Part shown: positions 12,349 through 28,380 of the stretch, one piece after another
Numbering within the stretch: position 1 is the stretch's first letter
Layout: every line of letters starts with the position of its first letter
Assembly (NCBI GenBank): GCA_028819345.1
Contig: JAPPLW010000059.1
Coordinates: 3,890 to 67,889 of the forward strand
Length of the DNA stretch: 64,000 nucleotides
Reading direction: 5' to 3'
Source: a bacterium
GTDB lineage: Bacteria; Actinomycetota; Acidimicrobiia; Spongiisociales; ZC4RG35
Made by a program: the position numbers and the translations under genes
The notes under the pieces: generated by a model
What the model saw: only the letters and a program-made list of their open reading frames with translations
Database searches by the model: none
What the model was told of the DNA's origin: nothing

Positions 12349-12644
12349 CACTCGTCTCCTCCGTTCAAGAGCTCGGGCGCCCGACGAAGCGACCATGTGC
12401 AACCATGCCGTGCCGCGTTCCCGCTCGACGGCGTCGGGCCCAGGAATTATATCAATGCTGCCGGGTGGCCGGCCCCGGCATCTCCCCGACGACACCCGTC
12501 ACGGACCCTGTTGTGATATTTTGTCACATTCCTAAGATACGGCCCTATGTCAATTCGATCCCCCGGACCCGACCGGCGCCCTGGAGTGGCCGTCGACGGA
12601 GTAATGGCTACCGGCTGTGAGGCGAATCCGAGGCTGACTTACGC

Positions 12645-14756
12645 ATGAGCGCTTCCGGCCTTCGGCCGCCCGGCGAGGCACGAATCGGCGTTGACGTGGG
12701 AGGGACGTTCACCGATGTGGTGGTCACCAGCACGGGCGGGGAAATCTATACCTACAAACTGCTGTCGACCCCCAGGGACTTCAGCGAAGGCGTGGTCGAT
12801 GGGATCCGCGAGATCATCGAGTCACACGGCGTCGAGCCGGCCGACACCCGAGATGTGGTGCATGGAAGCACCGTGGCGACCAATGCCATCCTGGAACGAA
12901 AGGGCGCTTTCACGGGTCTTCTGACCACGGCAGGGTTCGCCGACGTGCTGGAATTGCGAAGACTGCGGGTCCCGAAGTTGTACGACGTGACCTGGCAGAA
13001 GCCCGAGCCGCTGGTGGAACGCTCGCGGCGCCTGGAGGTGATCGAACGAGTGGGCGTTGACGGCAAGGTGGTCACAGCCCTGGATCTCGACGACGCCCGG
13101 CAGAAGGTGGAGGCGCTCGTCGACCTCGGGGTGGAGTCGATCGCGGTGAGCCTCATCCACTCCTACGCCAATCCCTCGCACGAGACTGCCATCGGGGAGA
13201 TGCTCGCCAGTGAGCACCCCGAAGTGTGGGCCTCGCTCTCCCACCGGGTACTGCCCGTGATCCGGGAGTACGAGAGGACCAGCACGACCGTGCTGAACGC
13301 CTACGTCAGGCCGGTGGTGGCCTCCTATCTCGAAGCGCTCCGGGGAAAGCTCGACGGCCTGGACGTGACGGCGCCCTTGCTGATCATGCAGTCCAACGGC
13401 GGGGTCATGACCAGCGAGGCGGCAGCCGAGCGGCCGGCATACGTCGTCGAGTCAGGTCCGGCGGCGGGGGTGATCGCCTCGAGCGGGCTGGCCCGGTCGT
13501 TGGGGGTGGACAACGCCATCACCTTCGACATGGGCGGCACCACCGCCAAGACCGCATTGGTGGAAGATGGCGAACCGCATTTCACCGCCGAGTTCGAGGT
13601 GGCATCGGCGATGTCGGCCGGCAGTCGCTTGCGGAGCGGAGGAGGCTATGCACTGAGCGTGCCCTTCATCGACCTCGCCGAGGTGGGAGCGGGAGGCGGC
13701 AGCATCGTTTGGATCGACTCCGCCGGCGCTCCCAAGGTCGGTCCCTCCTCGGCCGGCGCCGACCCCGGTCCGGTGTGTTACGGGAAGGGAGGCGCCGAGC
13801 CCACGGTCACCGACGCCAACCTGTTGCTGGGGTATCTGAACCCCGCGGGGCTCTTGGACGGAGCGGTCAAGCTGGATGTGGAAGGAGCCCGGGCAGCGTT
13901 CGAGGAGAAGGTCGCCGGTCCGCTGGGCCTGGACATCCCGTTCGCCGCCTACGGGGCTCACCTGATCGCCAACGCCAGCATGATCCGGGCGATCAAGTCG
14001 GTCTCGGTCCAGCGGGGCCGGGATCCCCGCGACTTCACGCTGATCGCCTTTGGGGGGAGCGGTCCGGTCCATGCGATGGGGATCGCCAGGGAGTTGGGGA
14101 TCCGCCGGGTGATAGTGCCTCCCCAGCCCGGGGTGTTCTCCGCAGTCGGATTGCTGGAGGCCCGGCTGGAATTCCATGCCAAGAAGACCTTCCTCCGGCG
14201 CACCGCCGAACTGTCCCGGCGGGAACTCCAATCGGAGATCCGGGAACTGGAGGCCCAGGCGCGGGAAGGAGTGGGACATGGGAGCCTTCATACCGTCTCC
14301 TTCGAATTCGAGCCCTGGGTGGAGATGCGATACGTCGGCCAGGGCTTCGAGCTACCCGTGAGACTTCCGGGGTTCACCGACGACTGGACGTCATGGGTGG
14401 AGGAACTGGACCGGGCGTTCGGCGAGCAGCACCTCAACACTTACGGCCATGTGACCAACAACGCAACGGAGATCGTGCAACTGCTGGTGGTGATACGCGA
14501 ACAGAATCCGGTGGGCGTCCCGGTCGGCAGGCGCCCCGACTCGCAACCGGATGAGTCGAACAGGAGGGAAGTCTTCTTCGGCGGTGAGATCGGACTCCTG
14601 TCCACGCCGGTGCTCCGCCGCGGCGACCTCACGGCTACCCCCCGCCAGGCGCCGATGATCATTGAGGACTACGACGCCACCACGGTGGTGCCGCCCGGCT
14701 ACCGGGTCTTCCGGGACCGGTCCCAGAGTGTGATCATCGAGGAGGACTCGACATGA
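12645..14756 (+). CDS. hyuA: Hydantoinase/oxoprolinase family protein, subunit A (ATP-dependent)
   Basis: 703 aa. N-terminal ARIGVDVGGTFTDVV is the HyuA/oxoprolinase-A motif. Confidence 0.85.
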   Translation: MSASGLRPPGEARIGVDVGGTFTDVVVTSTGGEIYTYKLLSTPRDFSEGVVDGIREIIESHGVEPADTRDVVHGSTVATNAILERKGAFTGLLTTAGFADVLELRRLRVPKLYDVTWQKPEPLVERSRRLEVIERVGVDGKVVTALDLDDARQKVEALVDLGVESIAVSLIHSYANPSHETAIGEMLASEHPEVWASLSHRVLPVIREYERTSTTVLNAYVRPVVASYLEALRGKLDGLDVTAPLLIMQSNGGVMTSEAAAERPAYVVESGPAAGVIASSGLARSLGVDNAITFDMGGTTAKTALVEDGEPHFTAEFEVASAMSAGSRLRSGGGYALSVPFIDLAEVGAGGGSIVWIDSAGAPKVGPSSAGADPGPVCYGKGGAEPTVTDANLLLGYLNPAGLLDGAVKLDVEGARAAFEEKVAGPLGLDIPFAAYGAHLIANASMIRAIKSVSVQRGRDPRDFTLIAFGGSGPVHAMGIARELGIRRVIVPPQPGVFSAVGLLEARLEFHAKKTFLRRTAELSRRELQSEIRELEAQAREGVGHGSLHTVSFEFEPWVEMRYVGQGFELPVRLPGFTDDWTSWVEELDRAFGEQHLNTYGHVTNNATEIVQLLVVIREQNPVGVPVGRRPDSQPDESNRREVFFGGEIGLLSTPVLRRGDLTATPRQAPMIIEDYDATTVVPPGYRVFRDRSQSVIIEEDST

Positions 14757-16576
14757 CCGCATCGGGTGGAGCAGCCGCCATAGAGCGGGAACTGATCCGC
14801 GAGGGTCTGGCGGCGATATGCGAGGAGATGGCGGTGAGCGTCCTGCGGACTTCCCATTCGGAGACGGTGAAGAGCGCCATGGACTTCTCCACCGCCCTGT
14901 GTGACGAGACCGGGCAGATAATCGCCCAGGGAGTCACGCTTCCCAACCAACTCGGCGCCCTCCCGGAGGCGGTGGCGGCGATTCTGAGGCGTTTTGAGGG
15001 AGATCTCCATCCGGGCGACGTGGCCATGGTCAACGATCCGTTCGACGGCGGCATGCACCTTCCCGACATCTTCGTCGTGCGCCCTGTTTTCTTCGCCTCC
15101 GAGTTCGTGGGACTGGTGGCGACGGTGGCCCACCACGCCGACCTGGGCGGGATGGTGGCCGGGAGCATGTCCCCCTATGCGGAGGAGTGCTTCCAGGAGG
15201 GCCTACGGATCCCGCCGGTGAAGCTGTATTCGCGGGGAAGGCGGGAGGAGGGAGTGTTCGCCCTGCTGGGCGCCAACACCCGGGTGCCGGACATCGTCCT
15301 GGGAGACTTCGACGCGCAACTGGTGGCTTGTGCGACCGGCGTCCAAGCCTTCCACCGGATGATCCGCCGGTACGGATTGGCGGAGTTCAGGGCCCACGTG
15401 GCGGCTCTGTTGGACTACACGGAGATGCTCACCCGCCAGGAGATCAGGACCTTCCCCGAGGGGACCTACTCGTACGTCGACTATCTGGACGACGACGGTG
15501 TCCGCGACGATCCGGTGCCCATCGTCGTCTCCATCGAGATACGCGACGGTGGAGTCACCCTCGACTTCACGGGGAGCTCACCCCAGGTCCGGTCCTCTCT
15601 GAACAACACCCTGTCGTTCACCCATTCGAACACCTACGCGGCGATGCGCGCCCTGCTGCGGTCCGACATTCCCAACAACGCCGGGTTCTTCCGGCCGATA
15701 ACGGTCAAGGCGCCGCGGGGATGCATCCTCAACTGCGTCCTTCCGGCCGCCACCGGGACCCGCGGATTGACCGGTTTCAGGGTGATGGACGCCATCTTCG
15801 GCGCCCTGGCGCCCGCTCTCCCCGACCGGGTGATGGGCGCTTCCGACGGCGGGCTGTCGCTGGTGACGGTGGGAGGGGTGAGACCGGAGGGCGAGCGGTT
15901 CTCGGTGGTGGAACTGATCTCCGGGGCGTGGGGTGGCCAGGCTCTCCAGGACGGGGAGGACGGCGTGCCGAACGTGGGCGCCAATGTGAGCAACATCCCC
16001 GTCGAGATGCTCGAGTCGTCCCTTCCCGTGCGCGTCGATCGCTACGGCTACGTTCCCGACACGGGCGGCGCCGGCCTCCACCGGGGCGGCCTCTCACTCC
16101 AGCGCGAGTACACGTTCCTCCAGGAGTGCGACCTGAGCGTACGCTCCGACCGGGCAACCATCTATCCCTACGGGATCGGCGCCGGAAGGCCCGGAACCCC
16201 ATCATTGAACCTTCTGGGTCCGGATGGCGAGGAGACGCGGATGCCGTCGAAGTTCTCCCAGCGGGTCACGGAAGGGATGCGCCTGATTCATCGCACCGCC
16301 GGCGCCGGCGGTTGGGGAGACCCGCTCTACCGGGACCCGGAGCAAGTCGCAACCGATGTTCACAACGGGATACTGTCAACCGAGCGGGCATTCGCCGAAT
16401 ACGGGGTGGTCCTGATGCCGGATACGGACGAAGTCGACCGGGAAGCCACCGAAACGGAACGGACGGCACGCCGCGCCACGTCTGAAGACGCCACGTCCAC
16501 CCCGATCTCTCCATCGGCCCCGACACCGCTGGAGGACCGCATCAGCGACAAACTAAGAGCGTCTGGGAAGTTCTAG
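14753..16576 (+). CDS. hyuB: Hydantoinase/oxoprolinase family protein, subunit B
   Basis: ATGA overlap with hyuA. 607 aa with HyuB-type sequence (DPFDGGMHLPD...). Confidence 0.85.
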   Translation: MTASGGAAAIERELIREGLAAICEEMAVSVLRTSHSETVKSAMDFSTALCDETGQIIAQGVTLPNQLGALPEAVAAILRRFEGDLHPGDVAMVNDPFDGGMHLPDIFVVRPVFFASEFVGLVATVAHHADLGGMVAGSMSPYAEECFQEGLRIPPVKLYSRGRREEGVFALLGANTRVPDIVLGDFDAQLVACATGVQAFHRMIRRYGLAEFRAHVAALLDYTEMLTRQEIRTFPEGTYSYVDYLDDDGVRDDPVPIVVSIEIRDGGVTLDFTGSSPQVRSSLNNTLSFTHSNTYAAMRALLRSDIPNNAGFFRPITVKAPRGCILNCVLPAATGTRGLTGFRVMDAIFGALAPALPDRVMGASDGGLSLVTVGGVRPEGERFSVVELISGAWGGQALQDGEDGVPNVGANVSNIPVEMLESSLPVRVDRYGYVPDTGGAGLHRGGLSLQREYTFLQECDLSVRSDRATIYPYGIGAGRPGTPSLNLLGPDGEETRMPSKFSQRVTEGMRLIHRTAGAGGWGDPLYRDPEQVATDVHNGILSTERAFAEYGVVLMPDTDEVDREATETERTARRATSEDATSTPISPSAPTPLEDRISDKLRASGKF

Positions 16577-16774: not shown

Positions 16775-16826
16775 TGATGAGTCGCAATATGAGTTAGTAT
16801 GAGTCATTATTGAGTCATCACAGGAG
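16775..16826 (+). promoter_or_regulatory. Putative vapBC promoter/operator: four (A)TGAGT(C/T)A repeats including the 9-bp palindrome ATGAGTCAT, followed by an AGGAG SD
   Basis: Direct repeats at about 10-11 bp phasing immediately upstream of vapB in a lower-GC stretch. This is the typical layout of RHH-antitoxin autoregulatory operators. Confidence 0.45.
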
Positions 16827-16833
16827 TATGATT

Positions 16834-17097
16834 ATGAACCAACTGACCGTGAGGGGATTCGGCGACGAACTGGGCTCAGCGGTGCGTCGTCTGGCAGCTC
16901 GGGAGAGAATCTCTCTGAACCAAGCTGCACTGAGACTGCTGCGGCGGGGCGCCGGACTGGCCGAAGGCGCCGACACGGCAGAAAGGGTGGGGTCTTCCCT
17001 GGATCACCTAATAGGCAACTGGACTCTGGAAGAGGCCGATGAGTTGGATGCCGCGCTGGAAGATTTCGAGACCATCGACGCGGATGCCTGGAAGTGA
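16834..17097 (+). CDS. vapB: Type II antitoxin, RHH/CopG-like (VapB)
   Basis: Small protein MNQLTVRGFGDEL...ISLNQAALRLL. AGGAG lies 7 nt upstream of the ATG at 16834 (the track ORF opens at a TTG at 16810). GTGA overlap with the downstream PIN gene. Confidence 0.7.
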   Translation: MNQLTVRGFGDELGSAVRRLAARERISLNQAALRLLRRGAGLAEGADTAERVGSSLDHLIGNWTLEEADELDAALEDFETIDADAWK

Positions 17098-17492
17098 GGG
17101 TCCTGCTGGACTCCAACGCCTACTCCATGCTCATGCGGGGGCACGGGCAGGTCACCGAACTGGTTAGAAGGGCTGAGGAACTGTTGTTCTCCGCCGTTGT
17201 GGTCGGTGAGCTCCTTTACGGATTCCGGCGCGGATCCCGTTTCCAGCAAAACCTGGCCGACCTTCGCTCCGTCCTCGCCAGCCCGTATTCGTCGTTCGTG
17301 GAGGTGGGATCTGTAACAGCGGACCGCTACTCGCGGATCGCTGCATCCCTGCGGGCCAAGGGGCGTCCTATCCCTACCAACGATGTCTGGATAGCCGCCC
17401 ACACGATGGAGACCGGCGCCGATCTCGTTTCGGCCGATCAACACTTCGGACACATCGACGGCATAGTCTGGATACCGATCCCCGCCACCTAA
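17094..17492 (+). CDS. vapC: Type II toxin, PIN-domain ribonuclease (VapC)
   Basis: MRVLLDSNAY...D...NDVWIAAHT. PIN-domain acidic residues are in place. Overlaps the antitoxin stop. Confidence 0.8.
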   Translation: MRVLLDSNAYSMLMRGHGQVTELVRRAEELLFSAVVVGELLYGFRRGSRFQQNLADLRSVLASPYSSFVEVGSVTADRYSRIAASLRAKGRPIPTNDVWIAAHTMETGADLVSADQHFGHIDGIVWIPIPAT

Positions 17493-17503: not shown

Positions 17504-18616
17504 CTAGCGCATGGGCAGAAGCTGTGCGGGGTTGTTGATGATGATCTGTCTGATCACCTCGTTCGAGATTCCCTTCTTGCGCATGAACGGAACGATGCTC
17601 TCGAGGATGTAGTAGTAGCCGTGGCCGCCGTAGCGGGTCAGCCGGTGTTTGGTGCAGATGTCCTGTGAGATGAGGAGACGAGAGGCCGTGTCGCCCTCCA
17701 GCAGTTTCACCATCCGGTCGAGGCGCTGGCCGTCGCTCGGCATGTCGAAGGGCGTCGCTCCGTAGAACGAGGACTCGTGACCGAAGAGGTCGAACTGGAG
17801 ATAGCTTTCCAGGTCCAGCAACTCCCAGAGGATGCCGATGTCCTGCACCCGGAGATCGAGGTGTCCAAGCACCACCCGGCTCATGTCGGCGCCGGCTCCG
17901 ATCAGGACTTCGGCCACCTCCATCGGGGACCTCTGATCCCGGCCGGTGTGGGTGGTGATCGCCACACCGGTCTCCTTCTGTACCTGGGCTGCGGCAGCCA
18001 GGACTCGTCTTTCTCGCTCATGCAACGGCCAGGTACAGGCGATCTTGATGACCCCTGCCTTGACCGACGTATCTTCCTGGCGACCCTGCCAGTCGTCATG
18101 ACCCTCGGTGGTGATCTTGACGCCGTCCAGGACCTCCGAGCGCATCAGGTCCGCCAACTGTTCTTCGGTCATGTTGTGCATATAAGAAGGGTGGGTATGA
18201 GCGACGTAGAACCCGGTGGACATGATGATGTGGACACCGCTTGCGCGAGAGATCCGCGCCAGGCCGACCGGATCCCGACCTATGCCGGGAGGCGTGACCT
18301 CGACCACGGCGCCACCTCCCCACTCTCGATAGAGCCGCATCTCATCGATGGCCGTGGAGATGTCTCCCAGCAGGAGGTTGTCATGGTGGCGGAAGTAGTT
18401 CCGGCGGATCCAGGCCAGATTGTCAAGGCGGATCGGTTCGAATGCGCGGACCCTCTCGCTGGCGGTTCGGGGTGCCTCGAAGATGCCGGTGACGTCGCAC
18501 AGGATGTGCTCGTGCATCATGGTCGCACCCAGCAGATGGGCGTCCACCTTCCCCAGTACGGTCTGGACCTGCCCGGATGGCGCCTGGCCTGGCGTTTCGC
18601 TCATCGTTTCTCTCAA
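17504..18616 (-). CDS. Phosphotriesterase-related (PTE family) metal-dependent hydrolase
   Basis: HEH motif (MMHEHILCD), TIM-barrel amidohydrolase PTE/Php family, 370 aa. Confidence 0.75.
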   Translation of the reverse strand: MRETMSETPGQAPSGQVQTVLGKVDAHLLGATMMHEHILCDVTGIFEAPRTASERVRAFEPIRLDNLAWIRRNYFRHHDNLLLGDISTAIDEMRLYREWGGGAVVEVTPPGIGRDPVGLARISRASGVHIIMSTGFYVAHTHPSYMHNMTEEQLADLMRSEVLDGVKITTEGHDDWQGRQEDTSVKAGVIKIACTWPLHERERRVLAAAAQVQKETGVAITTHTGRDQRSPMEVAEVLIGAGADMSRVVLGHLDLRVQDIGILWELLDLESYLQFDLFGHESSFYGATPFDMPSDGQRLDRMVKLLEGDTASRLLISQDICTKHRLTRYGGHGYYYILESIVPFMRKKGISNEVIRQIIINNPAQLLPMR

Positions 18617-19767
18617 CCGGACGGAGCGAGGTGGCGCGCCACGTCCTCGAAGGCGGTCTGTATGCGTTCCATCTGCTGGTCATTGTGCACCGCCGAGGCG
18701 ATGAGACGGATTCGCGAAGTCCCCGGAGGGACGTAGGGCGGGAGGACGGCCCGTACGAAGATGCCGTGGTGGATGAGTAGGTCCTCGGCCATCTGGGCCT
18801 TGGAGGCGTCGCCGAACATCACGGGGATTATCGGGTGGACCTTATCAGGCACGGAGAACCCGAGCCGGGTCAATGAAGAGTTGATCGTGACCGCGTTCTC
18901 CCAGAGCCGGTCCAAACGCTCCGGCTCGGACCGCATAACCCGTAGCGCCTCGAGCGCCGCCGCCGCGGCCACCGGAGAGGGGGCGGTCGTGAAAAGGAAC
19001 GTGCGGCACACCTTGCTCAAGTAGCCGATCACGTCCGACGACCCGGTGGCGAAGGCGCCGACGCTGCCCAACGCCTTCCCGAGTGTTCCCACTATCACAT
19101 CGGCTCGGTCAGCCCGTTGGTAATGGCCTGTCGAGCCCTTCCCGCCGGAGCCCAGGACGCCGGTGGCATGAGCGTCGTCCAAAACGAGCATGGCGTCATG
19201 CTTGTCGGCCAGGTCGGCTATCTCGTCCACCGGAGCGAGCGTGCCGTTCATCGAGAAGACACTGTCGGTTACCACCAGGCTCTTTCCGGAAGCCCCATCG
19301 AGTTGGTGACCCAGGTCCTCCGCGTCACAGTGCCGGTAGACCCTTATCTCGGCGCCGCTCAACCTGGCGCCGTCAATGATGCTGGCGTGATTGAGTTCGT
19401 CGCTGCACACGGTATCTCCCCTTCCGGGAAAAGCGGAGACAACCCCCAGGTTGGCCGCGTACCCGGATGCGAACAGGAGCGCTGATTCGGCTGCCTTCAG
19501 ATCCGCCAGTTCCTCCTCGAGTTCTCGATGTATCGCGGTGTCCCCTCCAACGTGGCGGGACGCCCGGGCTCCCGCTCCGAAGGTCGTCAGGGCGGCCTGT
19601 GCGGCAGCGATGACCCTGGGATCGGAAGCCAGGCCGAGGTAATCGTTCAGCCCAAGGGCGATGTGGGTGCGTCCCGCATGGTGGATCTCGCCGGGCCGGA
19701 CTACGTCGGAGGCGGGATCGGACGGCGGCCAGACGGCGGCCTGATCGGTAATGCGGTCCCGAATCAT
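18613..19767 (-). CDS. PLP-dependent alpha-oxoamine synthase (2-amino-3-ketobutyrate CoA ligase / 8-amino-7-oxononanoate synthase family)
   Basis: Class-II aminotransferase fold. SDELNHASIIDG and SMNGT motifs are typical of Kbl/BioF. 4-nt overlap with the PTE-family gene. Confidence 0.8.
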   Translation of the reverse strand: MIRDRITDQAAVWPPSDPASDVVRPGEIHHAGRTHIALGLNDYLGLASDPRVIAAAQAALTTFGAGARASRHVGGDTAIHRELEEELADLKAAESALLFASGYAANLGVVSAFPGRGDTVCSDELNHASIIDGARLSGAEIRVYRHCDAEDLGHQLDGASGKSLVVTDSVFSMNGTLAPVDEIADLADKHDAMLVLDDAHATGVLGSGGKGSTGHYQRADRADVIVGTLGKALGSVGAFATGSSDVIGYLSKVCRTFLFTTAPSPVAAAAALEALRVMRSEPERLDRLWENAVTINSSLTRLGFSVPDKVHPIIPVMFGDASKAQMAEDLLIHHGIFVRAVLPPYVPPGTSRIRLIASAVHNDQQMERIQTAFEDVARHLAPSG

Positions 19768-19852
19768 CTCACACCTTCCTTCGGCACAAATGGCATTTCC
19801 TCACCGCCTTCCTCCAGCAAGGGGGATCCTGATTGCTCATAGCGGCTCAACA

Positions 19853-21418
19853 TCACCTTCGCAGCACCCGCCCGGGCCGGGTCCCCGAGAGCCTACCGGC
19901 CAGCATCACGGGCTTCCCGTTGACCAGCACGTGCTCCATTCCCTCAGCCAACACATTCGGCTCGTACCTGGTTGCCTTTTCGCGGAAAACCGCCGGGTCG
20001 AATACTGCGACGTCGGCGAAGGCCTTCGGTCTCAGCACGCCGCGGTCGGAGAGGCCGAGGCGGTCGGCCGGAAGGCCGGACAGTCGGCGTACCGCTTCGC
20101 TCGGTGAGAGGAATCCCTCCGGGCCGGCAGAGAAGTTGTAGAAGTAGGAGGCCCAGGTGTATGCACCGTGGAACGTACCTCCCGCAAGGGGACCGTCGGG
20201 CGCCATGGTGGTGGCGTCGGAGGCCGGCATAGCCAGCGGGTGGGCGAAAGCCCTCCGCTGCTGGTCGGCGCTGTGACAGTCGATCAGGACCATCAGGGAG
20301 CCCATGGTCTCGATCGCTCCCAGCAACAGGTCGTAGATGCAGTCCAGTGCCTCCTGTCCCCGCTCGGCGGCGATCGATCCGATCGACCGGCGGCCGTAGT
20401 CGGGATAGGCGTCATGGTCCAGCAATTCGATACGCTCCCAGTCGCCGCCTGCGCTGAGGATGCTTCGGAAGTCCTTCATCTCCCGGCGTGCGTCGCTGCT
20501 TCGGAGCACGGAAGCGAGTCCGTCGACACCGCCGGCCATCGCCCATGGGGGAAGCACCGAGTAGAGATAGGTGAACCCGAACAGGCGGGTGTGCACGTCG
20601 AATGCGATGTCCAGGCCCTCATGGCGGGCCTCGTCGACCATTTCCAGGCATTGTTCCATCTCGGCGTCGCCGCTTCGGGGAACCAGGTGGGAGACCTGGA
20701 GCCTCACCCCGGCGGCCCTGGCGGTCCTGATCGCCTCGGCCACCCCCTCGGGCGCGCCGGCGTCACGGTAGCGGGCATGGCAGACGTACAGGTCGTCCCG
20801 CTCGGCGAGCGGAGCGCACAGCTTGGTGACCTCCGACTCGGAAGCGCCGGCCTCGGTTGCGTACTCGAGGCCGGTCGAGAGGCCCCAAGCGCCCTCTTCC
20901 AGCGCGGTGGCGAGAAGTCGGGCCATGCGGTCCAGCTCCCCTTCCGTTGACAGCCGGTCGGTCAGGCCCACTTCGGCCAGGCGGAGTTGACCATGGGGGA
21001 CCATGCTCATGACGTTCAGGGCCGGCTCCGCCTGCTCGAGCCGGGAGAAGTAGCCCGAGGCGGAGTCCCAATCGAGGGGGACCGACTCCGAGTAGCCGTA
21101 TATCGCCTTCAGGGCGAGTTCGCGGTCCCGGATGGGAAAGCATCCATGGCCGCAGTTGCCGACCACCTCCGTGGTGACTCCCTGGTGGATGGCGCTGACT
21201 GCCCGGGGGTCGGCCAGGAGGGTGTAGTCGGAATGGCTGTGGATGTCGATGAATCCCGGCGTCACGAACAGTCCCGTGGCGTCCAGTTCCTCACCCTGGC
21301 GTGAATCCAGGTCCCCTATCGCGGCGATACGTTCGCCAACGATGCCTACATCGGCCCGCCGGGGATCACCGCCGGTTCCGTCCAGTACGGTGCCGCCCCG
21401 AATGATGTAGTCAAACAT
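19853..21418 (-). CDS. D-aminoacylase-type amidohydrolase (N-acyl-D-amino-acid deacylase family)
   Basis: MFDYIIRGGTVLDG...TPGFIDIHSHSD. 521 aa, D-aminoacylase-like architecture. Confidence 0.75.
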   Translation of the reverse strand: MFDYIIRGGTVLDGTGGDPRRADVGIVGERIAAIGDLDSRQGEELDATGLFVTPGFIDIHSHSDYTLLADPRAVSAIHQGVTTEVVGNCGHGCFPIRDRELALKAIYGYSESVPLDWDSASGYFSRLEQAEPALNVMSMVPHGQLRLAEVGLTDRLSTEGELDRMARLLATALEEGAWGLSTGLEYATEAGASESEVTKLCAPLAERDDLYVCHARYRDAGAPEGVAEAIRTARAAGVRLQVSHLVPRSGDAEMEQCLEMVDEARHEGLDIAFDVHTRLFGFTYLYSVLPPWAMAGGVDGLASVLRSSDARREMKDFRSILSAGGDWERIELLDHDAYPDYGRRSIGSIAAERGQEALDCIYDLLLGAIETMGSLMVLIDCHSADQQRRAFAHPLAMPASDATTMAPDGPLAGGTFHGAYTWASYFYNFSAGPEGFLSPSEAVRRLSGLPADRLGLSDRGVLRPKAFADVAVFDPAVFREKATRYEPNVLAEGMEHVLVNGKPVMLAGRLSGTRPGRVLRR

Positions 21419-21584
21419 GTCCCGGTGAATGCCTTCGAGTCAAGTCTTCAAGTGGCCGGTCTTGCAACTGATAACGGCGCTGTCATGTAGGTGGGAGGCG
21501 CCGAATCGTCGTCGGGTAAGGGGCAAAAATATCGCTCCACCCCCTGACCGCGGCAGGGGTGCGTGGCTACCATGGCTGATATAT

Positions 21585-21608
21585 GTTACACAATGCATAT
21601 TGTGCAAC
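21585..21608. promoter_or_regulatory. 24-bp near-perfect palindrome GTTACACAATGCATATTGTGCAAC in the divergent intergenic region
   Basis: 9 of 10 positions match between the two arms. Lies between the divergent D-aminoacylase operon and the ABC/amidase/GntR operon. GT-N-AC cores fit a GntR-family operator. Confidence 0.5.
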
Positions 21609-21711
21609 AGGCAGGAGCGCCGGCTTCCGCTGACCATCGCTGCTGCTCTCCATAAAGACCATTGGAGTGACATATCGAGCAGTGTCACGTCCGATAGGAA
21701 GGATTGAACAG

Positions 21712-22782
21712 ATGCCTAAGAAATACTTACGAAGTCTCGTAGCTGTCATCATCGCTCTCGCCATGGTGGCGGCAGCCTGCGGTGAGGATGAGCCCGCAGA
21801 GACCACGGCGGCGCCAACCACAACCGCCGCTCCGACTACCACCGCGGCTCCCGAGGAAGAGCCGATTCGTATCGGGCTGGTCATTCCCGACTTCACCCAG
21901 AACGAGCTGATCCTTGCCCTGAAGACCGGCGCGGACGACGCCGCTGCCGACTACGGCGTGGAACTGTTGGTGACAGGTAGCGGTAGCGCCCAGGATCTGG
22001 TGGCAGCCGTCGAGAACTACGCGGCTGCAGGTGTTGACGTGATCGTCTATGACACGATCGACGCCCAGGCCCTGGCGCCTGCGATTCTCGCCTTGAACGA
22101 CGCCGGCATTCCGGTGGTCTGCACGGTTGCCTGTGCTTCCGAGGGCGTCAGCGCCATCGAGATCGGCTACGACTACCGGACCGACATGGGACGGCCGCTC
22201 GGTGATTGGCTGGCCGCTTACGAGCCGGCGCCGAAGAAACTCGCCTTCATCGACTCCAACCAGGCCGATGAATCGATCGCTGCCATCTACGCCGGAATCG
22301 AAGACGGCCTGGAAGCCGGTGGACTGACTGACGTCGAGAGGGTTGTATCCCCACCCACCAACTGGGACCGGGCGGCAGGCCTCGACGCGGCAAGGTCACT
22401 GCTGACCGCCCACCCGGATGTGGACATCATCGTGGGCTTGCATGACCTCCTGGCCGGGGCGACCCTGACCGCCATGGAGGAGCTGGGTTACAAGGAGACC
22501 ACTTTGACCGGTCTCGGCGGCACCTGCGAAGGCCTCATGAACATTCTTGAGGGCCGCCAGGCGCTCACCGTGATCCAACCGCTCTATCCGGCCGGCTACC
22601 TGGCCGTTGAAGCGGCCGTCAAGATCGCCCAGGGAGAAACCATGACAGAGGACTTCATCCCGATCGGCATGGTGGTGGTCGACAAGGCGTTCGCCGAAGG
22701 CGTGCTGGACGGTTCGGAAGAGCCCGTGCAGAGCGGTGTTGACCTCAAGACAGCACTGGACGCCGCAGCGGCTGGTTGCTAA
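21712..22782 (+). CDS. ABC transporter substrate-binding lipoprotein, periplasmic-binding-protein type 1 (ribose/sugar-binding-like fold)
   Basis: MPKKYLRSLVAVIIALAMVAAAC lipobox, then a Thr/Ala/Pro-rich linker and a PBP1 fold (IGLVIPD...). Start chosen at the ATG at 21712 rather than the upstream ORF start. Confidence 0.75.
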   Translation: MPKKYLRSLVAVIIALAMVAAACGEDEPAETTAAPTTTAAPTTTAAPEEEPIRIGLVIPDFTQNELILALKTGADDAAADYGVELLVTGSGSAQDLVAAVENYAAAGVDVIVYDTIDAQALAPAILALNDAGIPVVCTVACASEGVSAIEIGYDYRTDMGRPLGDWLAAYEPAPKKLAFIDSNQADESIAAIYAGIEDGLEAGGLTDVERVVSPPTNWDRAAGLDAARSLLTAHPDVDIIVGLHDLLAGATLTAMEELGYKETTLTGLGGTCEGLMNILEGRQALTVIQPLYPAGYLAVEAAVKIAQGETMTEDFIPIGMVVVDKAFAEGVLDGSEEPVQSGVDLKTALDAAAAGC

Positions 22783-22918: not shown

Positions 22919-23950
22919 GTGAGTTTCGTGGTTGACTCGAATCAGGCGCAAGCGAGCGAGGGGCCCGCAAGGGTGCGACGTGGCTTGATCAGATACCGGC
23001 AACTGTGGGCGTTGTTGATTGCGGTTCTGCTCCTTTGGACTTACCTGAGCTTTGCCAGCCCCTACTTCATGACCGTGCAGAACCTGACCAACATCGCTTT
23101 GCAGAGTTCGGTGGTGGGGATCATGGCGGTCGGGTTCACCATCCTGCTGATCGGCGGAGAGATCGACCTGGCGATCGGCTCCACCCAGGCCCTGGCCGGA
23201 ACCATGGCCGCACTGCTCATCATCCAACGCGAACTGCCGATCTGGGCCGGGGTACTGATAGTGCTGGGCATGGGCCTGATCGTCGGGAACGTGAACGGGT
23301 ACTTCTCCCTGTTCACAAAGGTCCCGTCGTTCATCGTCACGCTGGCCATGCTGGGGGTCCTCCAGGGCCTTGCCTTCGTGATGACCAGCGGACAGACGAT
23401 CGGTGGGTTCCCGGAAGCCTTCAAAGTCCTGGGTCACGGCAAGGTGGGGGTGATCCCGCTACCGGTGATCATCTTCTTTTCGGTCACCGTGGTCGTGCAA
23501 CTGGTGCTGAGCCACACACGATACGGCGTGGAACTGTACGCCACCGGTGGCAATCGGGAGGCGGCGGAACTGGTGGGCATAAGCGTCAGGAGGGTCTTGA
23601 TGCTGGCCTTCATCGCCAGTTCGATGCTGTGCACCCTGGCGGGGCTGGTGCTGAGCGCCCGGCTGAACGCCGGCCACGGCTCCTTCGGATCGGAGTCGCT
23701 GCTCGATGCGGTGGCGGCGGTGATCATCGGGGGGACATCGCTGAACGGCGGCGCCGGCAATACGTTCGGGACGCTTCTGGGGATCATCCTGATAAGCACC
23801 ATCAAGAACGGCCTGATCCTGCTGGGGGTGGATCCGTTCTGGCAGCAGGTGGCGGTCGGCGCCCTGATCCTGGCAGCAGTCCTGGTGGACAAGACCATCA
23901 AGGGCGAACTGGCGCCGGGAGACCTCCTGCCCAGGTTGGTGAGACGATGA
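22919..23950 (+). CDS. ABC transporter permease (RbsC/branched sugar-type, CUT2 family)
   Basis: About 10 TM segments with CUT2-permease-like sequence (GGEIDLAIGS...). Confidence 0.8.
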   Translation: MSFVVDSNQAQASEGPARVRRGLIRYRQLWALLIAVLLLWTYLSFASPYFMTVQNLTNIALQSSVVGIMAVGFTILLIGGEIDLAIGSTQALAGTMAALLIIQRELPIWAGVLIVLGMGLIVGNVNGYFSLFTKVPSFIVTLAMLGVLQGLAFVMTSGQTIGGFPEAFKVLGHGKVGVIPLPVIIFFSVTVVVQLVLSHTRYGVELYATGGNREAAELVGISVRRVLMLAFIASSMLCTLAGLVLSARLNAGHGSFGSESLLDAVAAVIIGGTSLNGGAGNTFGTLLGIILISTIKNGLILLGVDPFWQQVAVGALILAAVLVDKTIKGELAPGDLLPRLVRR

Positions 23951-24738
23951 CTGTGTCCGCTCCCCCGGGCATGAGCGGGCCCAACGGGAACGGCGCCCTC
24001 GACCGGATTCCCGGGCCGGTGATGATGGCCAGGGGCGTCCACAAGTCCTTCGGCCAGGTACGCGCCCTGATCGACGCCACGTTTCAGGTCGACGAGGGAG
24101 AGACCGTGGCGATAGTGGGTGACAACGGCGCCGGCAAGTCGACGCTGGTCAAGATCCTGACCGGCGCCATACAACCGGATACCGGCTCCCTCGAACTGGA
24201 CGGTACGGAGGTGAGTTTCCGAACCACCCGGGACTCTTTGCAACTGGGGGTGACGGCGGTCTATCAGAACCTGGCGCTGGCCGACAACATGACCGTGGCC
24301 GAAAACGTGTTCCTGGGCCGGGTGCCTACCCGATGGCTCAGGGTGGACCGCCGGAGGATGGAAAAGGAGTCGGCGGAACTCCTCGACTCCCTGGCGATCA
24401 ACGTGCCCGACGTCAGAGCACGGACGGCATTGCTGTCGGGTGGACAGCGTCAGGCGGTGGCGATCGCCCGGGCCTTCCGGTCCGGCCGGAGGCTGATGAT
24501 CCTGGACGAGCCGACCGCAGCCCTGGGAGTCCAGGAGGGCCAGAAGGTCTTGGACATCATCGAAGGGCTCAAGGGACAGAGGGTCTCGATCATCGTGGTC
24601 AGTCACAACCTCGACCACGTGTTCCGGGTGGCTGATCGAATCGTGGTGATGAGGGGAGGCCGGATTGTGGGTTCACGCCGAAAGGAAGAAACGACCACCG
24701 CCGACATCGTCCATCTGATAGTGGGAACCCGGGAGTGA
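23947..24738 (+). CDS. ABC transporter ATP-binding protein (single nucleotide-binding domain)
   Basis: ATGA overlap with the permease. Walker A GDNGAGKST, signature LSGGQRQAV. Only 263 aa, so a single NBD. Confidence 0.85.
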   Translation: MTVSAPPGMSGPNGNGALDRIPGPVMMARGVHKSFGQVRALIDATFQVDEGETVAIVGDNGAGKSTLVKILTGAIQPDTGSLELDGTEVSFRTTRDSLQLGVTAVYQNLALADNMTVAENVFLGRVPTRWLRVDRRRMEKESAELLDSLAINVPDVRARTALLSGGQRQAVAIARAFRSGRRLMILDEPTAALGVQEGQKVLDIIEGLKGQRVSIIVVSHNLDHVFRVADRIVVMRGGRIVGSRRKEETTTADIVHLIVGTRE

Positions 24739-24778
24739 GGCGGTCGATGTCGGTGGTAAGGAACGGTTGGGAGAGAAA

Positions 24779-26338
24779 ATGACTCGAATGGAACGCAACC
24801 GCCGGACCGTCCGGCCTCCCTCGGCTGGAGACATAGAGGAGACGGCGGCTCACGACGGGATCGAGCTCGCCGGAGGGGAAGCCGAGGAACTCTCCGGCAT
24901 AGTCACCGCCCTGGTGATGGCCGCCGGAGACGCCGACCGCTTCAACCCGCCGGAAGTCCCCACCTTCCAGACTTCGCGTGATCCCGGTCGACGGCCTTCG
25001 GTGACCGACGACCCCCTGAACGCCTTCATCCGGATGTGCGACGTGCAGGGCGCCGACCAGGGTCCCCTTTCGGGTTGGCGGCTGGGCGTGAAGGACAACA
25101 TCGCAGTGGCCGGGGTGCCGATGACCAACGGGTCCGTCTTCCCTCCGTTCGTCCCCACGCTGGACTCGGTCGTCGTCGAGAGGATGCTCAAAGCCGGGGG
25201 ATCGATCGTGGGCACACTCAACATGGACGACCACGGCGGCGGAGCCACCGGGGTGATGAGCGCTTTCGGCCCGGCCCGCAACCCGCTCGACCCGTCGCGG
25301 ACCGCGGGGGGTTCGTCGGGGGGTGCGGGGTCAGCGGTGGCGTCAGGAGCCGTCGACGGCGCTCTGGGAGTGGACCAGGGCGGAAGCGGCCGGATACCCG
25401 CGGCATGCTGTGGAGTGGCGACGGTCAAGGCCACCCACGGCCTCATTCCCACCTTCGGTGTGACCCCGATCGACCACAGCATCGACTACGTGACACCACT
25501 TGCCCGCTCGGTTAGGGAAGTCGCCATCCTGCTGGAGGTGATCGCCGGCGAGGACTGGCGCGATCCCCAGGGGATCCACATTCCCATCGAGATCCCCGAG
25601 TACCGGCGCGCCGAAGGAGAAGGCGTCGCCGGTCTTCGGATCGGGTTGATCGACGAAAGCGTCACGGGCGTCGACTGCGAGCCGGTGGTGGTCGAAACGA
25701 TCAATGACGCGGTGGGGGCACTGGAGCAGGCCGGCGCCGAGGTTGAGAGGATCTCCTTCCGGGAGTGGAGCGAGGCCTCCAGCATATTCGGGCCCTACGT
25801 GGCCCACCTGGTTGGCAACATGCTGAGGACCGAGGGGGGCAGCCACGGTCACATGGGATACATCGACGTCGACCGGATGCATGCCTTCGCCACCAGCCGG
25901 CGCGCCCAGTCCCGCGAGCTGAACCCCTACGTCAAGTGCTGGACCATCGCCAGCCGGTACCTGATGGAGCGGTACATGAACGTCCCGTTCGGCCGCTTGC
26001 ACAATGCGCGGCTCGAGTCGCGGCGGCGCATAAGCGAACTGCTGGGCACATGGGACCTGCTGATCACGCCCACCATCCCGTTCACTGCGCCGAAACTGCC
26101 CGAGGCCCCCACACCGATCGCCGACCTCCTGGCGGACTCCAAAGCCAGTGTGGCGTTCAACACATCGCCGCTCAACATGTCGGGGCATCCGGCCATGGCG
26201 GTGCCCGGTTTGTATGACTCCGACGGTCTGCCCGCCTCGGTACAGATCGTCGCCGCTCACTTCGACGAATTCACCGCCTTCCGGGCGGCCTTCGTACTCG
26301 AGGAGTACTTTGCCGGGCGGAAGCCCGAGTCGGCCTGA
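24779..26338 (+). CDS. Amidase (amidase-signature family)
   Basis: GGSSGGAGSAVA amidase-signature motif and the Ser-cisSer-Lys region. The track ORF starts at a TTG at 24767; the ATG at 24779 follows GGAGAG. Confidence 0.85.
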   Translation: MTRMERNRRTVRPPSAGDIEETAAHDGIELAGGEAEELSGIVTALVMAAGDADRFNPPEVPTFQTSRDPGRRPSVTDDPLNAFIRMCDVQGADQGPLSGWRLGVKDNIAVAGVPMTNGSVFPPFVPTLDSVVVERMLKAGGSIVGTLNMDDHGGGATGVMSAFGPARNPLDPSRTAGGSSGGAGSAVASGAVDGALGVDQGGSGRIPAACCGVATVKATHGLIPTFGVTPIDHSIDYVTPLARSVREVAILLEVIAGEDWRDPQGIHIPIEIPEYRRAEGEGVAGLRIGLIDESVTGVDCEPVVVETINDAVGALEQAGAEVERISFREWSEASSIFGPYVAHLVGNMLRTEGGSHGHMGYIDVDRMHAFATSRRAQSRELNPYVKCWTIASRYLMERYMNVPFGRLHNARLESRRRISELLGTWDLLITPTIPFTAPKLPEAPTPIADLLADSKASVAFNTSPLNMSGHPAMAVPGLYDSDGLPASVQIVAAHFDEFTAFRAAFVLEEYFAGRKPESA

Positions 26339-26341: not shown

Positions 26342-27682
26342 ATGACCTTCCGGGGGCCTTTGGAGAGGCGGGCCCTCGAGTATCTGTGGATTCACGAGAG
26401 TCCGCGCTCCGAACTGGTGGACCACGACATGCTGAGGGTGTTCGACCGGGGTGAGGGAGCATGGCTCTGGGACACCCGGGGCGATCGCTACTTCGACCTC
26501 TGCTCGTCGATGTGGCAGACGCCTCTCGGGCATGGTCGATCCGACATCACCGCGGCAATGGCCGAACAGGCCCGCAACGTAGCCACCGCCGGGCCGATCT
26601 TCTTCACCACCCGGGGAGCGGTGGAACTGGCCGAGCGGCTGGCGGCGTCGGCGCCGGGGGATCTTCAACACTCGTTTCTCACCAGTTCCGGCTCGGAGGC
26701 CACCGAGACCGCCATCAAACTGGCCCGCCAGTATCACCGCATACGGGGCGATCACCATCGCTACAAGGTCATATCCCGCTATGGCTCGTATCACGGGGCC
26801 GGAGCGGGAGGCCTGGCCATGTCGGGCCGTCGACACCGCGACTCCATGTACTACCCGTTGATGCCGGGAGGAGTGCACGTCATGCCCCCGACGGGGACCT
26901 CCGACCTCCAATATGCCGAACAGATCCGGGAAGTGATCGAACTGGAGGGACCCGAGACGGTGGCGGCGGTTATCGGAGAACCGGTGGCGATCACCGAGTT
27001 CCGGATCCCGGATGAGACCTACTGGCCCCGGGTGAGAGAGATATGTGACTCCTACGGCGTCTTGCTGATAGCCGACGAGACGCTGGTGGGGTGCTGTCGG
27101 AGCGGGCGGATGTGGGCGATCGAACACTGGAACGTGGTGCCGGATGTGATGGTGGTGGCCAAGGCCTTGAGCGGCGGATACGCTCCGGTGGCCGCCATGA
27201 TCGTCCGAGAGCACATCTTCTCGGCGTTCGGCCGTGACACGGGCTCTCCCTCGGTCCAGAGCTACGGGGGCCACGGCGCAAGCGCCGCGGCGGCCGCCAA
27301 GGCGATGGAGATCTATGTGACAGAGCGCATGGACCTGGTCGCCGAGAGCCTGGGCGCGGACCTGTATGGAATGTTGAGCGAAGCCGGAGTCAGGGAGTTT
27401 CCGGTCGTGGGAGATGTACGGCGGTTCGGCCTGTGGATCGGGATCGAACTTGTCAACCCGGTGACCGGCGAGTCCTACGCCACCGGGATTAAGGGCAGGT
27501 ACGAGGTGGCCAAAGAACTCAGCCGGCGGTTGTTGAGACTCGGCTGCGCGGCGGCTCGGATGTCGGAGGGGATCCTGCACGTGGCCCCTCCGTATGTGTC
27601 AACCTCAGAGGACCTCGACTTCGTCGCCGAATCGGTGTTTTCCGTCTTAGGCGAGATGTCCGATATGCTATCTCAAGGCTGA
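26342..27682 (+). CDS. Class-III (omega) aminotransferase, PLP-dependent
   Basis: SGSEATETAIKLAR and the overall aminotransferase class-III sequence, similar to beta-alanine/omega-amino-acid:pyruvate transaminases. Confidence 0.85.
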   Translation: MTFRGPLERRALEYLWIHESPRSELVDHDMLRVFDRGEGAWLWDTRGDRYFDLCSSMWQTPLGHGRSDITAAMAEQARNVATAGPIFFTTRGAVELAERLAASAPGDLQHSFLTSSGSEATETAIKLARQYHRIRGDHHRYKVISRYGSYHGAGAGGLAMSGRRHRDSMYYPLMPGGVHVMPPTGTSDLQYAEQIREVIELEGPETVAAVIGEPVAITEFRIPDETYWPRVREICDSYGVLLIADETLVGCCRSGRMWAIEHWNVVPDVMVVAKALSGGYAPVAAMIVREHIFSAFGRDTGSPSVQSYGGHGASAAAAAKAMEIYVTERMDLVAESLGADLYGMLSEAGVREFPVVGDVRRFGLWIGIELVNPVTGESYATGIKGRYEVAKELSRRLLRLGCAAARMSEGILHVAPPYVSTSEDLDFVAESVFSVLGEMSDMLSQG

Positions 27683-27711: not shown

Positions 27712-28380
27712 TTGCAGCACAACTGGACCATAGAACAGCGGATTACCAAGGAGCTTCGAGACCTCATAGTGGCAGGGGAACTCGAACCGGGCGTCCGGGT
27801 CCGCTATCGGGATCTTGCCGAGCAGTTCGGGGTCAGTGTTACGCCGGTTCGCGCCGCGGTGCGGGAACTGGCGCACGAGGGGTTGATCGACGCCCGCCCC
27901 AACTCCGCCAACTACGTGTCTCCGCTGTCACTCGATGAGATCGAACAGCTGTACCTGGCCAGGATGGGGTTTGAATCGTGGCTGGCCCGCCTGGGGGCTC
28001 CCCGCCTGTCGAGCCAGGGCTTGAGCGTGATGGAGGAGAGGCTCCAGAGGTTCCAGGCGGCCGCCGAGCAAAGCAAAACCGAATGCCTGATGGACATCGC
28101 CTGGGAGATGCGGTCGGTCTGTTACGAGGCCGCCGATCGTCCCAGCCTGCTGCAAAAGGCGGCGGACCTTTACGATCGCTCCCGCCGTTACACCCATCGG
28201 ACACTGATGGTTGCTTCCCGACGCCAAAGGTCGGCAGTCGTGGCGAAGGCCTTTTACGGCGCCTGCCTGGAGCGCGACGGCAGTCTGGCTGCGGAGACCA
28301 TCCGGGGGGCACTTGAGGTGACCTTCCAAGATCTCCTCAGCATGATCGACCCGGCGGAAAACGGGCAACTGGCCTCCTAG
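27712..28380 (+). CDS. GntR family transcriptional regulator (FadR/FCD subfamily)
   Basis: N-terminal wHTH (LAEQFGVSVTPVRAAVRELAHEGLI) plus an FCD-type C-terminal domain. Last gene of the operon. Confidence 0.85.
   Translation: MQHNWTIEQRITKELRDLIVAGELEPGVRVRYRDLAEQFGVSVTPVRAAVRELAHEGLIDARPNSANYVSPLSLDEIEQLYLARMGFESWLARLGAPRLSSQGLSVMEERLQRFQAAAEQSKTECLMDIAWEMRSVCYEAADRPSLLQKAADLYDRSRRYTHRTLMVASRRQRSAVVAKAFYGACLERDGSLAAETIRGALEVTFQDLLSMIDPAENGQLAS

Follow-up and report, generated by a model that had tools for sequence, protein, structure and literature searches.

N-methylhydantoinase (creatinine degradation), 5-oxoprolinase, and CapAB are ATP-dependent enzymes of the HydA/HydB type. PTER, deorphanised in animals only recently, is an N-acetyltaurine and N-acetyl-β-alanine amidohydrolase; D-aminoacylases and deacylases of N-acyl-D-amino acids share the Amidohydro_3 fold family; and Kbl and BioF are α-oxoamine synthases (AOS) that use pyridoxal phosphate (PLP). 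Here, we describe a bacterial locus that encodes relatives of all of them. It lies in a stretch of 64,000 nucleotides (the window) from an Acidimicrobiia genome (GTDB lineage Actinomycetota; Acidimicrobiia; Spongiisociales; ZC4RG35), contig JAPPLW010000059.1 of assembly GCA_028819345.1, positions 3,890 to 67,889. An earlier note on this DNA had proposed an operon coupling a PTE-family hydrolase, a Kbl/BioF-like α-oxoamine synthase, and a D-aminoacylase. The list of open reading frames (ORFs) and the Pfam matches bear out three genes on the minus strand:

19853-21418, minus strand: amidohydrolase of 521 aa, first gene of the operon (Pfam Amidohydro_3, 1e-24)
18613-19767, minus strand: AOS-family protein of 384 aa (Pfam Aminotran_1_2, 9e-60)
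17504-18604, minus strand: PTE-family protein of 366 aa from ATG 18604; the ORF extends to TTG 18616 (370 aa) (Pfam PTE, 6e-69)

We found that these three genes are the tail of a core of five: HydA, HydB, amidohydrolase, AOS, and PTE-like. In the window, hydA and hydB are convergent with the three-gene operon:

12645-14756, plus strand: HydA subunit of a putative ATP-dependent lactam/hydantoin-ring hydrolase (Pfam Hydant_A_N and Hydantoinase_A)
14753-16576, plus strand: HydB subunit, overlapping HydA by 4 nt (Pfam Hydantoinase_B, 1e-169)

Taken together, we tentatively suggest that Acidimicrobiia and Thermoleophilia share an uncharacterised gene set for the catabolism of a cyclic or N-acylated amide, which would proceed by ring opening, deacylation or decarbamoylation, amide removal, and a step at Cα-Cβ linked to coenzyme A (CoA). 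We put this forward as a possibility that stays short of a probable one. To our knowledge, an AOS-family enzyme within a hydrolase cluster has no characterised precedent, and no published account of this kind of cluster came up in a literature search.

A genome scan anchored on PTE homologues returned 79 loci. Co-occurrence in other genomes, which the earlier note had named as a check, was clear: every one of the 16 genome loci whose PTE homologue reached at least 51% identity, and whose flanks sufficed, had all three genes. These 16 loci –Acidimicrobiia, one Solirubrobacteraceae metagenome-assembled genome (MAG), and one Thermoleophilaceae MAG– also carried the genes for the substrate-binding protein (SBP), the permease, the amidase, and the GntR regulator, and HydAB was found in them wherever the contig reaches far enough. 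The set was missing from 58 more distant loci, which belong to Dehalococcoidia, other Chloroflexota, and, in one case, Thermoleophilia, and whose PTE identity does not exceed 49%; four of these had only a distant amidohydrolase homologue (36-47% identity) several kb off. The association of the three genes is far beyond chance. Because it persists through rearrangement in many genomes, we regard them as a functional unit, as had been proposed, although this unit is really part of a set of 5-10 genes. The closest relatives of the locus are Acidimicrobiia MAGs with protein identities of 94-99%, whose isolate names (RHO1_bin, Plut, OM1) suggest sponge and coral sources. Of the PTE homologues in the plasmid collection, the closest (Roseovarius, 39% identity) stood in an unrelated neighbourhood, and no cultured-plasmid copy of the cluster was found.

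Genome loci and soil or metagenome contigs displayed at least eight gene orders, in Acidimicrobiia, Solirubrobacteraceae, Thermoleophilaceae, and unclassified soil contigs. In the following strings, Dacyl is the D-aminoacylase-like amidohydrolase and AT3 the class III aminotransferase:

Window type: GntR-AT3-amidase-ABC <> Dacyl-AOS-PTE ... HydB-HydA
L004/L024: Dacyl-AOS-GntR-PTE <- HydB-HydA-amidase-ABC
L025: HydAB (fused)-Dacyl-AOS-SBP-perm-ATPase-PTE-amidase-GntR
L027: HydA-HydB-ABC-Dacyl-AOS-PTE-amidase-GntR-(BhcC-like)
L179: (second PTE)-HydA-HydB-Dacyl-AOS-ABC-PTE-DadA-like-HpcH aldolase-VOC-amidase-GntR
L092: as L179, but with the second PTE paralogue after AOS and a cupin gene after GntR
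L178, minimal variant: HydA-HydB-Dacyl-AOS-PTE-(D-Ser-dehydratase/BhcC-like), with GntR on the opposite strand
L098: Dacyl-AOS, then PTE-perm-SBP on the opposite strand
L093, minimal variant: HydA-HydB-PTE-DadA-VOC

The amidohydrolase and AOS genes were adjacent in every gene order that has them, always with the amidohydrolase first, and the most constant chain is HydA-HydB-amidohydrolase-AOS. In soil variants, the HydB, amidohydrolase, and AOS genes overlap by 4 nt, and HydB is translationally coupled to the amidohydrolase. The pairing of AOS and PTE, which the earlier note had stressed, is real in the window but lineage-specific: a GntR gene stands between them in L004/L024 and transporter genes do in L025. 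Most loci share a periphery: an ABC importer of the sugar type, an amidase-signature amidase, and a GntR/FCD regulator, the last being present in every complete cluster variant. As a whole, the set thus combines an importer, a putative ATP-dependent ring hydrolase, up to three more C-N hydrolases, and a dedicated PLP enzyme of the AOS type.

Regarding the junctions within the operon, the spacing of 85 bp between the amidohydrolase and AOS genes is exact (19768-19852). A scan of this spacer found no terminator-like site, the promoter and terminator consensus scans gave no match, and the spacer holds GAAGGAAGG, a purine-rich run resembling a Shine-Dalgarno sequence. The 4-nt overlap claimed for AOS and PTE did not hold up equally well, as it requires the PTE gene to start at TTG 18616 (TTGA), a codon that relatives lack; L002 has CTG at this place. 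The junction in the window reads ...GGT TGA gagaaacg ATG..., and in relatives the PTE start falls on the same +8 position after the AOS stop (GTG in L001, ATG in L002). The arrangement is most likely a spacer of 8 nt, which is near enough for coupled translation.

HydA and HydB both presented full-length Pfam domains. The best solved relatives of HydA were N-methylhydantoinase (7hk5, 458 bits) and caprolactamase (6yra, 380 bits), and the acetone/acetophenone carboxylase subunits scored 262, 210, and 171 bits. Since hydrolases score higher than carboxylases, HydAB is more likely a ring-opening hydrolase than a carboxylase. Like the ATP-dependent enzymes named at the outset it belongs to the HydA/HydB type, here as two subunits, and it scores far under the equivalog cut-offs of caprolactamase (513 and 286 bits vs. 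1000). In the Solirubrobacteraceae locus L025, hydA and hydB are fused into a single ORF of 1328 aa (740-4726) that resembles the 1288-aa N-methylhydantoinase chain 7hk5. An aminoketone carboxylase feeding a Kbl-type cleavage was considered for HydAB and discarded, as HydA is much nearer to the hydrolases.

These likenesses could point to a classical hydantoin logic, from creatinine/N-methylhydantoin or a 5-substituted hydantoin to an amino acid. HydAB would then be a (methyl)hydantoinase and the PTER-like enzyme or the amidase a carbamoylase, AOS would use glycine or alanine synthetically with an acyl-CoA, and other lineages would rely on DadA, or on a sarcosine-oxidase-like enzyme, together with an aldolase. 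This route agrees with the best solved relative of HydA and the fused chain of L025, and also with the minimal HydA-HydB-PTE-DadA-like cluster of L093 and the substrates of PTER, which are small anionic N-acyl amino acids. N-methylhydantoinase, N-carbamoylsarcosine, and creatinine also turn up as terms in sponge-microbiome papers. However, sarcosine is a secondary amine and cannot form a PLP aldimine, and the AOS gene, universal in the main cluster type, would be left unexplained for creatinine. With Pfam and NCBIfam, no creatinine deaminase, creatininase, N-carbamoylsarcosine amidase, or sarcosine oxidase was recognised in the window cluster; besides, the importer is of the sugar type and two extra hydrolases would have no role. 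We consider this route unlikely.

The PTE protein scored 233 bits against the Pfam PF02126 gathering cut-off of 22.4 and is a member of the binuclear PTE family, with metal ligands H31, H33, K187, H219, H248, and D315 invariant across 24 homologues. Its best solved relative was sponge PTER (9efa; 231 bits, E 1e-67, 35% identity over 358 residues, full length), followed by Rsp3690 with 161 bits; lactonases, OPH, and E. coli Php reached 81-106 bits. The lactonase option that had been left open for this gene thus loses ground: PTE-like lactonases of the Dr0930 and SsoPox type, with about 105 bits, are not its closest characterised kin.

In sponge PTER, roles have been assigned to the oxyanion Tyr131, the anion-binding Arg209 and Tyr268, the bridging Glu174, Arg238, a gate of Phe34 and Phe270, and His305 (PMC12873775). 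The window protein shares with PTER (9efa/9efb) the His/His/His/His/Asp metal ligands, the helical insertion between the first two α/β modules (alignment ungapped, residues 36-80), and the counterparts of Tyr131, Arg209, and Tyr268: Y133 and R222 were invariant in 120 homologues, and Y281 was found in 113 of them (Phe or Ser in the others). In contrast, Lys187 takes the place of the bridging Glu174, L251 that of Arg238 –with an Arg (R252) one position later–, V38 and A283 those of the Phe gate, and C317 that of His305, and the protein has a 12-residue insertion relative to PTER. Lys187 and Leu251-Arg252 were invariant in the group of at least 72% identity and near-invariant in the 49-61% group, and the V38/A283 gate suggests a wider channel than in PTER. 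Judging from these residues, the window protein represents a bacterial sister subfamily of PTER, placed within a multi-hydrolase cluster. The most economical guess for its substrate is an anionic N-acyl or N-carbamoyl amino acid.

Other PTE-family proteins deserve a mention of their own. Homologues of 350 aa from Dehalococcoidia/SAR202 (P0076-P0120; loci L028-L089) presented the animal PTER signature –bridging Glu, Phe gate, and Arg-Thr pair– in 36 of 45 cases. Conserved neighbours were absent, and we regard these proteins as candidates for bacterial hydrolases of the N-acetyltaurine type. Two soil loci, L092 (6019-7038) and L179 (1-291), hold a second, more PTE/OPH-like paralogue in the same operon, the L092 copy having 339 aa and about 26% identity to the window protein. 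The E. coli php (yhfV) operon presumably also combines a PTE-family gene with a PLP-enzyme gene. We rejected it as the same system, since YhfS showed no significant match to AOS (E 1.7) and Php is merely 27% identical.

The amidohydrolase was closest to the N-acyl-D-Glu deacylase Bb3285 (200 bits) and to the D-aminoacylase 1m7j (192 bits) among solved structures. It shares with these enzymes the HxH/Cys/His/His/catalytic Asp arrangement and the amide-polarising Tyr, and its subtype-V metal site (H60/H62, C89, H214, H244, D401) was conserved in 14 orthologues and aligned to AfDam and BbDam. The α-carboxylate of the substrate is bound by a Lys/Tyr/Arg clamp in three enzymes, those of A. faecalis and Bordetella and OngB, which deacetylates GlcNAc1A (PMC12017989); this clamp is Lys252/Tyr283/Arg377 in AfDam and Lys254/Tyr285/Arg379 in OngB. 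The window protein has lost this clamp according to two independent alignments: SHHK is replaced by SH--LVPRSG, the Tyr by His276, and the Arg by Thr or Leu. Moreover, its insertion domain is about 35 residues longer than in characterised D-aminoacylase-type enzymes, and the cluster family has invariant motifs of its own (PRSG, HTRL, APDGPLA, and FHGAYTWA). The D-aminoacylase label given to this gene therefore needs correction, as the metal site is retained and the α-carboxylate-binding triad is absent; on these residues, the protein should not be filed as an N-acyl-D-amino-acid deacylase (EC 3.5.1.81/82). Metal-dependent bile-salt hydrolases (Amidohydro_3) were also considered as kin and set apart by their description, which makes them proteins of the Nsfd (N-substituted-formamide-deformylase) type, modelled on 3ICJ, and not of the D-aminoacylase type.

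A route through lactones or amino-sugar acids would come near to the idea of the earlier note. The PTE protein would act as a lactonase and open an N-acyl amino-(sugar-)acid lactone (e.g. the oxidised amino sugar GlcNAc-1,5-lactone, or else an N-acyl homoserine lactone), the D-aminoacylase-like enzyme would deacylate a D-amino acid as OngB does, and AOS would cleave the oxidised amino acid with CoA into glycine and an acyl-CoA. The carbohydrate-type importer would suit such substrates, the amidohydrolase is homologous to OngB (143 bits; PMC12017989), the PTE protein bridges its metals through a Lys, as is typical of PTE-like lactonases, and the variants have DadA-like and D-Ser-dehydratase/BhcC-like enzymes and an aldolase of the 2-keto-3-deoxy-acid type. 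However, among characterised proteins the amidohydrolase PTER is much the closest to the PTE protein, the clamp that OngB and D-aminoacylases use is missing, there is no 3-dehydrogenase to make the keto acid, and HydAB, the most tightly coupled partner, would have no role. We therefore regard the lactone route as rather improbable.

For the AOS protein, the Kbl/BioF-like label was right as to the family, but the protein is neither BioF nor Kbl and falls in a separate clade. The catalytic set H127, S172, D197, H200, T228, K231, and R352/R354 is invariant, which places it in the α-oxoamine synthase superfamily. It shares with Kbl, BioF, and the Thermus AONS/KBL enzyme the fold, the PLP lysine, the PLP-stacking His, the Asp/His pair, and the carboxylate-binding Arg; the Thermus enzyme ThAOS (7poa) is its best solved relative, with 275 bits. 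The NCBIfam scores all stayed under the cut-offs: 387 bits against 426 for the BioF equivalog TIGR00858, 376 bits for the BioF/Kbl subfamily model, and 368 against 460 and 316 against 493 for the Kbl equivalogs. In a neighbour-joining tree of 54 sequences, the cluster AOS proteins formed a single clade (98 of 100 bootstraps) apart from the tdh-linked and the bioB/bioA-linked groups.

This clade presented its own invariant residues, Asp76-Thr77 and Tyr345; the Kbl residues at these positions are Thr-Gln/Met and Val/Thr. Asp76 aligns with Thr85 of E. coli Kbl, and Thr was found here in 12 of 13 Kbl-group sequences (11 tdh-linked loci, L006, and E. coli Kbl). Thr83 of ALAS controls amino-acid selectivity (PMC9356726), and we take the Asp76 position as its counterpart because the flanking motifs match in an alignment that held no ALAS sequence. 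Neighbourhoods also differ, as the cluster AOS gene has neither tdh nor bio neighbours. Among AOS homologues of 48% identity or less, ten adjoin bioB (six of them also bioA), eleven adjoin tdh, and the rest lack informative neighbours; a metagenome scan anchored on AOS found the cluster only at a single match of 51% identity (L098), and the clade was seen in no other context.

Could the adjacency be accidental, with AOS being the BioF or Kbl of the organism beside unrelated hydrolases? The bioF score is not far under its cut-off, and the nearest non-cluster sequences (47-48% identity) are bioB-linked. Nevertheless, the gene keeps its place after the amidohydrolase in every gene order, its clade is monophyletic and separate from the bio- and tdh-linked sequences, and a screen of the window ORFs, which reached to within ~7 kb of the end of the window, detected neither tdh nor bio genes. 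This explanation is close to refuted. On scores and phylogeny, the AOS gene is neither the housekeeping Kbl nor BioF, and the housekeeping threonine-pathway copy that the earlier note had named as its own refutation does not apply. A true Kbl does occur in one variant, L006 (954-5563; 613 bits vs. a cut-off of 460), between an HpcH-type aldolase and a second flavin (FAD) oxidase. This block lies downstream of HydB and a DadA-like gene, and insertion sequences part it from PTE-ABC-amidase. Its genuine Kbl indicates that Kbl-type chemistry is compatible with such a neighbourhood.

Coming back to a catabolic gene set for a cyclic or N-acylated amide, the following sequence of events would fit the genes. 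The carbohydrate-type ABC importer would bring in a polar nitrogen-rich compound, a cyclic amide or ureide with at least one N-acyl or carbamoyl bond. HydAB would open the ring at the expense of ATP, in the manner of N-methylhydantoinase, 5-oxoprolinase, and caprolactamase, and the PTER-like hydrolase would strip the acyl or carbamoyl group off the resulting anionic N-acyl amino acid. The amidohydrolase derived from D-aminoacylases, together with the amidase-signature amidase, would cut the remaining amide bonds. The released α-amino acid –or an α-amino-β-oxo acid coming directly from ring opening– would pass to the AOS enzyme for a Claisen or retro-Claisen reaction at Cα-Cβ with a CoA thioester, which would link the pathway to acyl-CoA and glycine-type metabolism. 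A GntR/FCD repressor acting on a palindrome in the divergent promoter would control the locus. We infer the order of the steps, the substrate class, and, for the PLP step, its direction and its co-substrates.

Several observations weigh against this proposal. The bridging ligand of the PTE protein is a Lys of the carboxy-lysine type, as in lactonases and PTE and unlike the Glu of PTER, so that lactonase instead of amidase chemistry is conceivable. A K-type PTE homologue with 49% identity (L091) stands without the cluster. A sugar-type importer sits oddly with substrates of the hydantoin or lactam type. As there is no dehydrogenase in the conserved core, ring opening itself would have to yield a 3-oxo amino acid. 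Members specific for glycine have Thr at a position where the AOS clade has Asp, so that glycine and acyl-CoA are not an obvious product pair. Finally, PMC11906848 describes AOS enzymes other than Kbl as normally irreversible and decarboxylative, chemistry that fits catabolism poorly. The thiolytic cleavage of an amino-keto acid to glycine and acyl-CoA that the earlier note suggested is possible, and it is weakened by two of these points, the core without a dehydrogenase and the Asp at the selectivity position.

In another reading, the AOS enzyme would be a decarboxylase that needs no CoA, acts on an α-amino-β-oxo (aminomalonate-type) acid, and performs just the second AOS half-reaction. Its substrate would arise by hydrolytic opening of a 5-amino-/5-acylamino-pyrimidine or a hydantoin with a polyol or sugar substituent, and the amidase would split the leftover amide. 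This would explain why no dehydrogenase is needed, as well as the sugar-type importer, the four C-N hydrolases, and the altered selectivity residue Asp76, and the decarboxylation of a β-keto-acid aldimine is intrinsic to the AOS mechanism. However, the proposal is purely inferential and no such enzyme or pathway is known; we give it a very small chance.

The accessory genes of the variants are informative on the products of the preferred catabolic set. They encode a DadA-like dehydrogenase, an HpcH aldolase, a VOC protein, a BhcC/D-Thr-aldolase-like protein, and the true Kbl, all of which act on small α-amino or 2-oxo acids; the DadA-like oxidases occur in soil variants only and not in the window cluster. 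Taken together with a tartronate-semialdehyde-reductase-like neighbour, they suggest a product pool that is glycine/glyoxylate-like, or a D- or β-oxygenated amino acid.

At the regulatory level, we detected one element between the divergent gene groups:

21584-21609, no strand assigned: imperfect palindrome of 26 bp, TGTTACACAAT-GCAT-ATTGTGCAACA, in the divergent promoter region

At the same place, about 180 bp upstream of the amidohydrolase gene, the pattern CACAA[T/C]-N4-ATTGTG recurred with at most one mismatch in 12 related Acidimicrobiia genome loci, and a 13th locus (L023) had a copy with two mismatches. This palindrome is probably a GntR/FCD operator, for which we propose it as a candidate. 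No riboswitch or other known RNA was found at E ≤1 in 9000-30000.

Beyond this promoter region, the genes divergent from the three-gene operon are the following:

21667-22782, plus strand: SBP of a carbohydrate-type, CUT2-like ABC importer, likely start ATG 21713 (Pfam Peripla_BP_4, 4e-39)
22919-23950, plus strand: ABC permease, conserved with the cluster (Pfam BPD_transp_2)
23947-24738, plus strand: single-domain ABC ATPase (Pfam ABC_tran)
24767-26338, plus strand: amidase-signature amidase (Pfam Amidase, 1e-79)
26342-27682, plus strand: class III aminotransferase, an accessory gene (Pfam Aminotran_3)
27712-28380, plus strand: GntR/FCD transcriptional regulator (Pfam GntR and FCD)

Solved structures offered only generic relatives for the SBP (ribose-binding proteins, about 80 bits) and for the amidase (Rhodococcus amidase 3a1k), and the ATPase matched only the first half of NCBIfam sugar-transporter ATPase models. 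The class III aminotransferase was found only in closely related Acidimicrobiia loci (PTE identity of at least 78%) and was absent from L024, L025, and L027. As a BioA, which would pair with a BioF-like gene in biotin synthesis, it was rejected because it scored 245 bits vs. a cut-off of 405 and is absent beyond the close Acidimicrobiia loci.

Three further genes flank the cluster:

28431-29354: tartronate-semialdehyde-reductase-like gene (304 bits vs. a cut-off of 341)
10855-12495: CoA-acylating methylmalonate-semialdehyde dehydrogenase gene
9502-10824: very divergent amidohydrolase gene

They may be lineage-specific lower-pathway genes, e.g. of a β-alanine or glyoxylate branch. The amidohydrolase gene at 9502-10824 was kept 1-3 kb from hydA in about eight Acidimicrobiia loci, and its sequence was too divergent to be assigned. 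Between hydB and the PTE gene, a toxin-antitoxin pair of VapB-like (ribbon-helix-helix) and VapC (PIN) type (16810-17492) looks recently inserted, since the close relatives L001 and L002 hold other small ORFs there.

Elsewhere in the window, 311-7055 encodes a separate Dpp/Opp-type ABC transporter (SBP_bac_5, two permeases, and two ATPases) followed by an Amidohydro_1 gene, another transport-plus-hydrolase unit. A PEP_hydrolase-like and UPF0261 gene pair lies at 34617-36708, and a formylglycine-generating-enzyme (FGE-sulfatase) gene, of a kind common in sponge symbionts, at 41273-42193.

If the proposed catabolic role of the gene set holds, it would give the bacterial sister group of PTER its first physiological context and add new substrate specificities to D-aminoacylase-like amidohydrolases, α-oxoamine synthases, and HydAB lactamases. 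It would also mean that a nitrogen-rich compound is harvested by both sponge- and coral-associated Acidimicrobiia and soil Thermoleophilia. A bolder version, which we find doubtful, is a pathway where ATP-dependent ring opening directly gives an α-amino-β-oxo (or other unusual α-amino) acid that the new AOS clade cleaves or decarboxylates, served by the bacterial PTER offshoot and the D-aminoacylase descendant with its rebuilt pocket. The substrate could then be an abundant N-heterocycle that has been overlooked and is at hand in both sponge tissue and soil, for example an oxidised nucleobase, a ureide, or an aminopyrimidine with a ribityl or sugar substituent. If true, it would add a degradative role to the AOS family, otherwise known, Kbl apart, only for biosynthesis. 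For biocatalysis, the enzymes are attractive as mild means of opening lactams or hydantoins, and for deacylation and C-C bond chemistry. For now, the locus represents a clearly delimited orphan gene cluster rather than a demonstrated new pathway, and the gain stays modest until a substrate is found.

When compared to known systems, the components all come from known superfamilies, and the succession of ring opening, deacylation, and amino-acid metabolism is a known logic. As in the described hydantoinase and lactamase pathways, ring opening is combined in the window with enzymes that would deacylate and metabolise the released amino acid. What differs is the downstream part: N-carbamoylsarcosine amidase and sarcosine oxidase, or an aminotransferase and a dehydrogenase, in the known pathways, and PTER-like, D-aminoacylase-like, and AOS enzymes here. 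The gene content, its conservation through rearrangement, the operator-like site, and the distinct active-site signatures of the three enzymes are observed features of the locus, and the altered substrate-binding residues of these three set each of them apart as a distinct subfamily within its superfamily.

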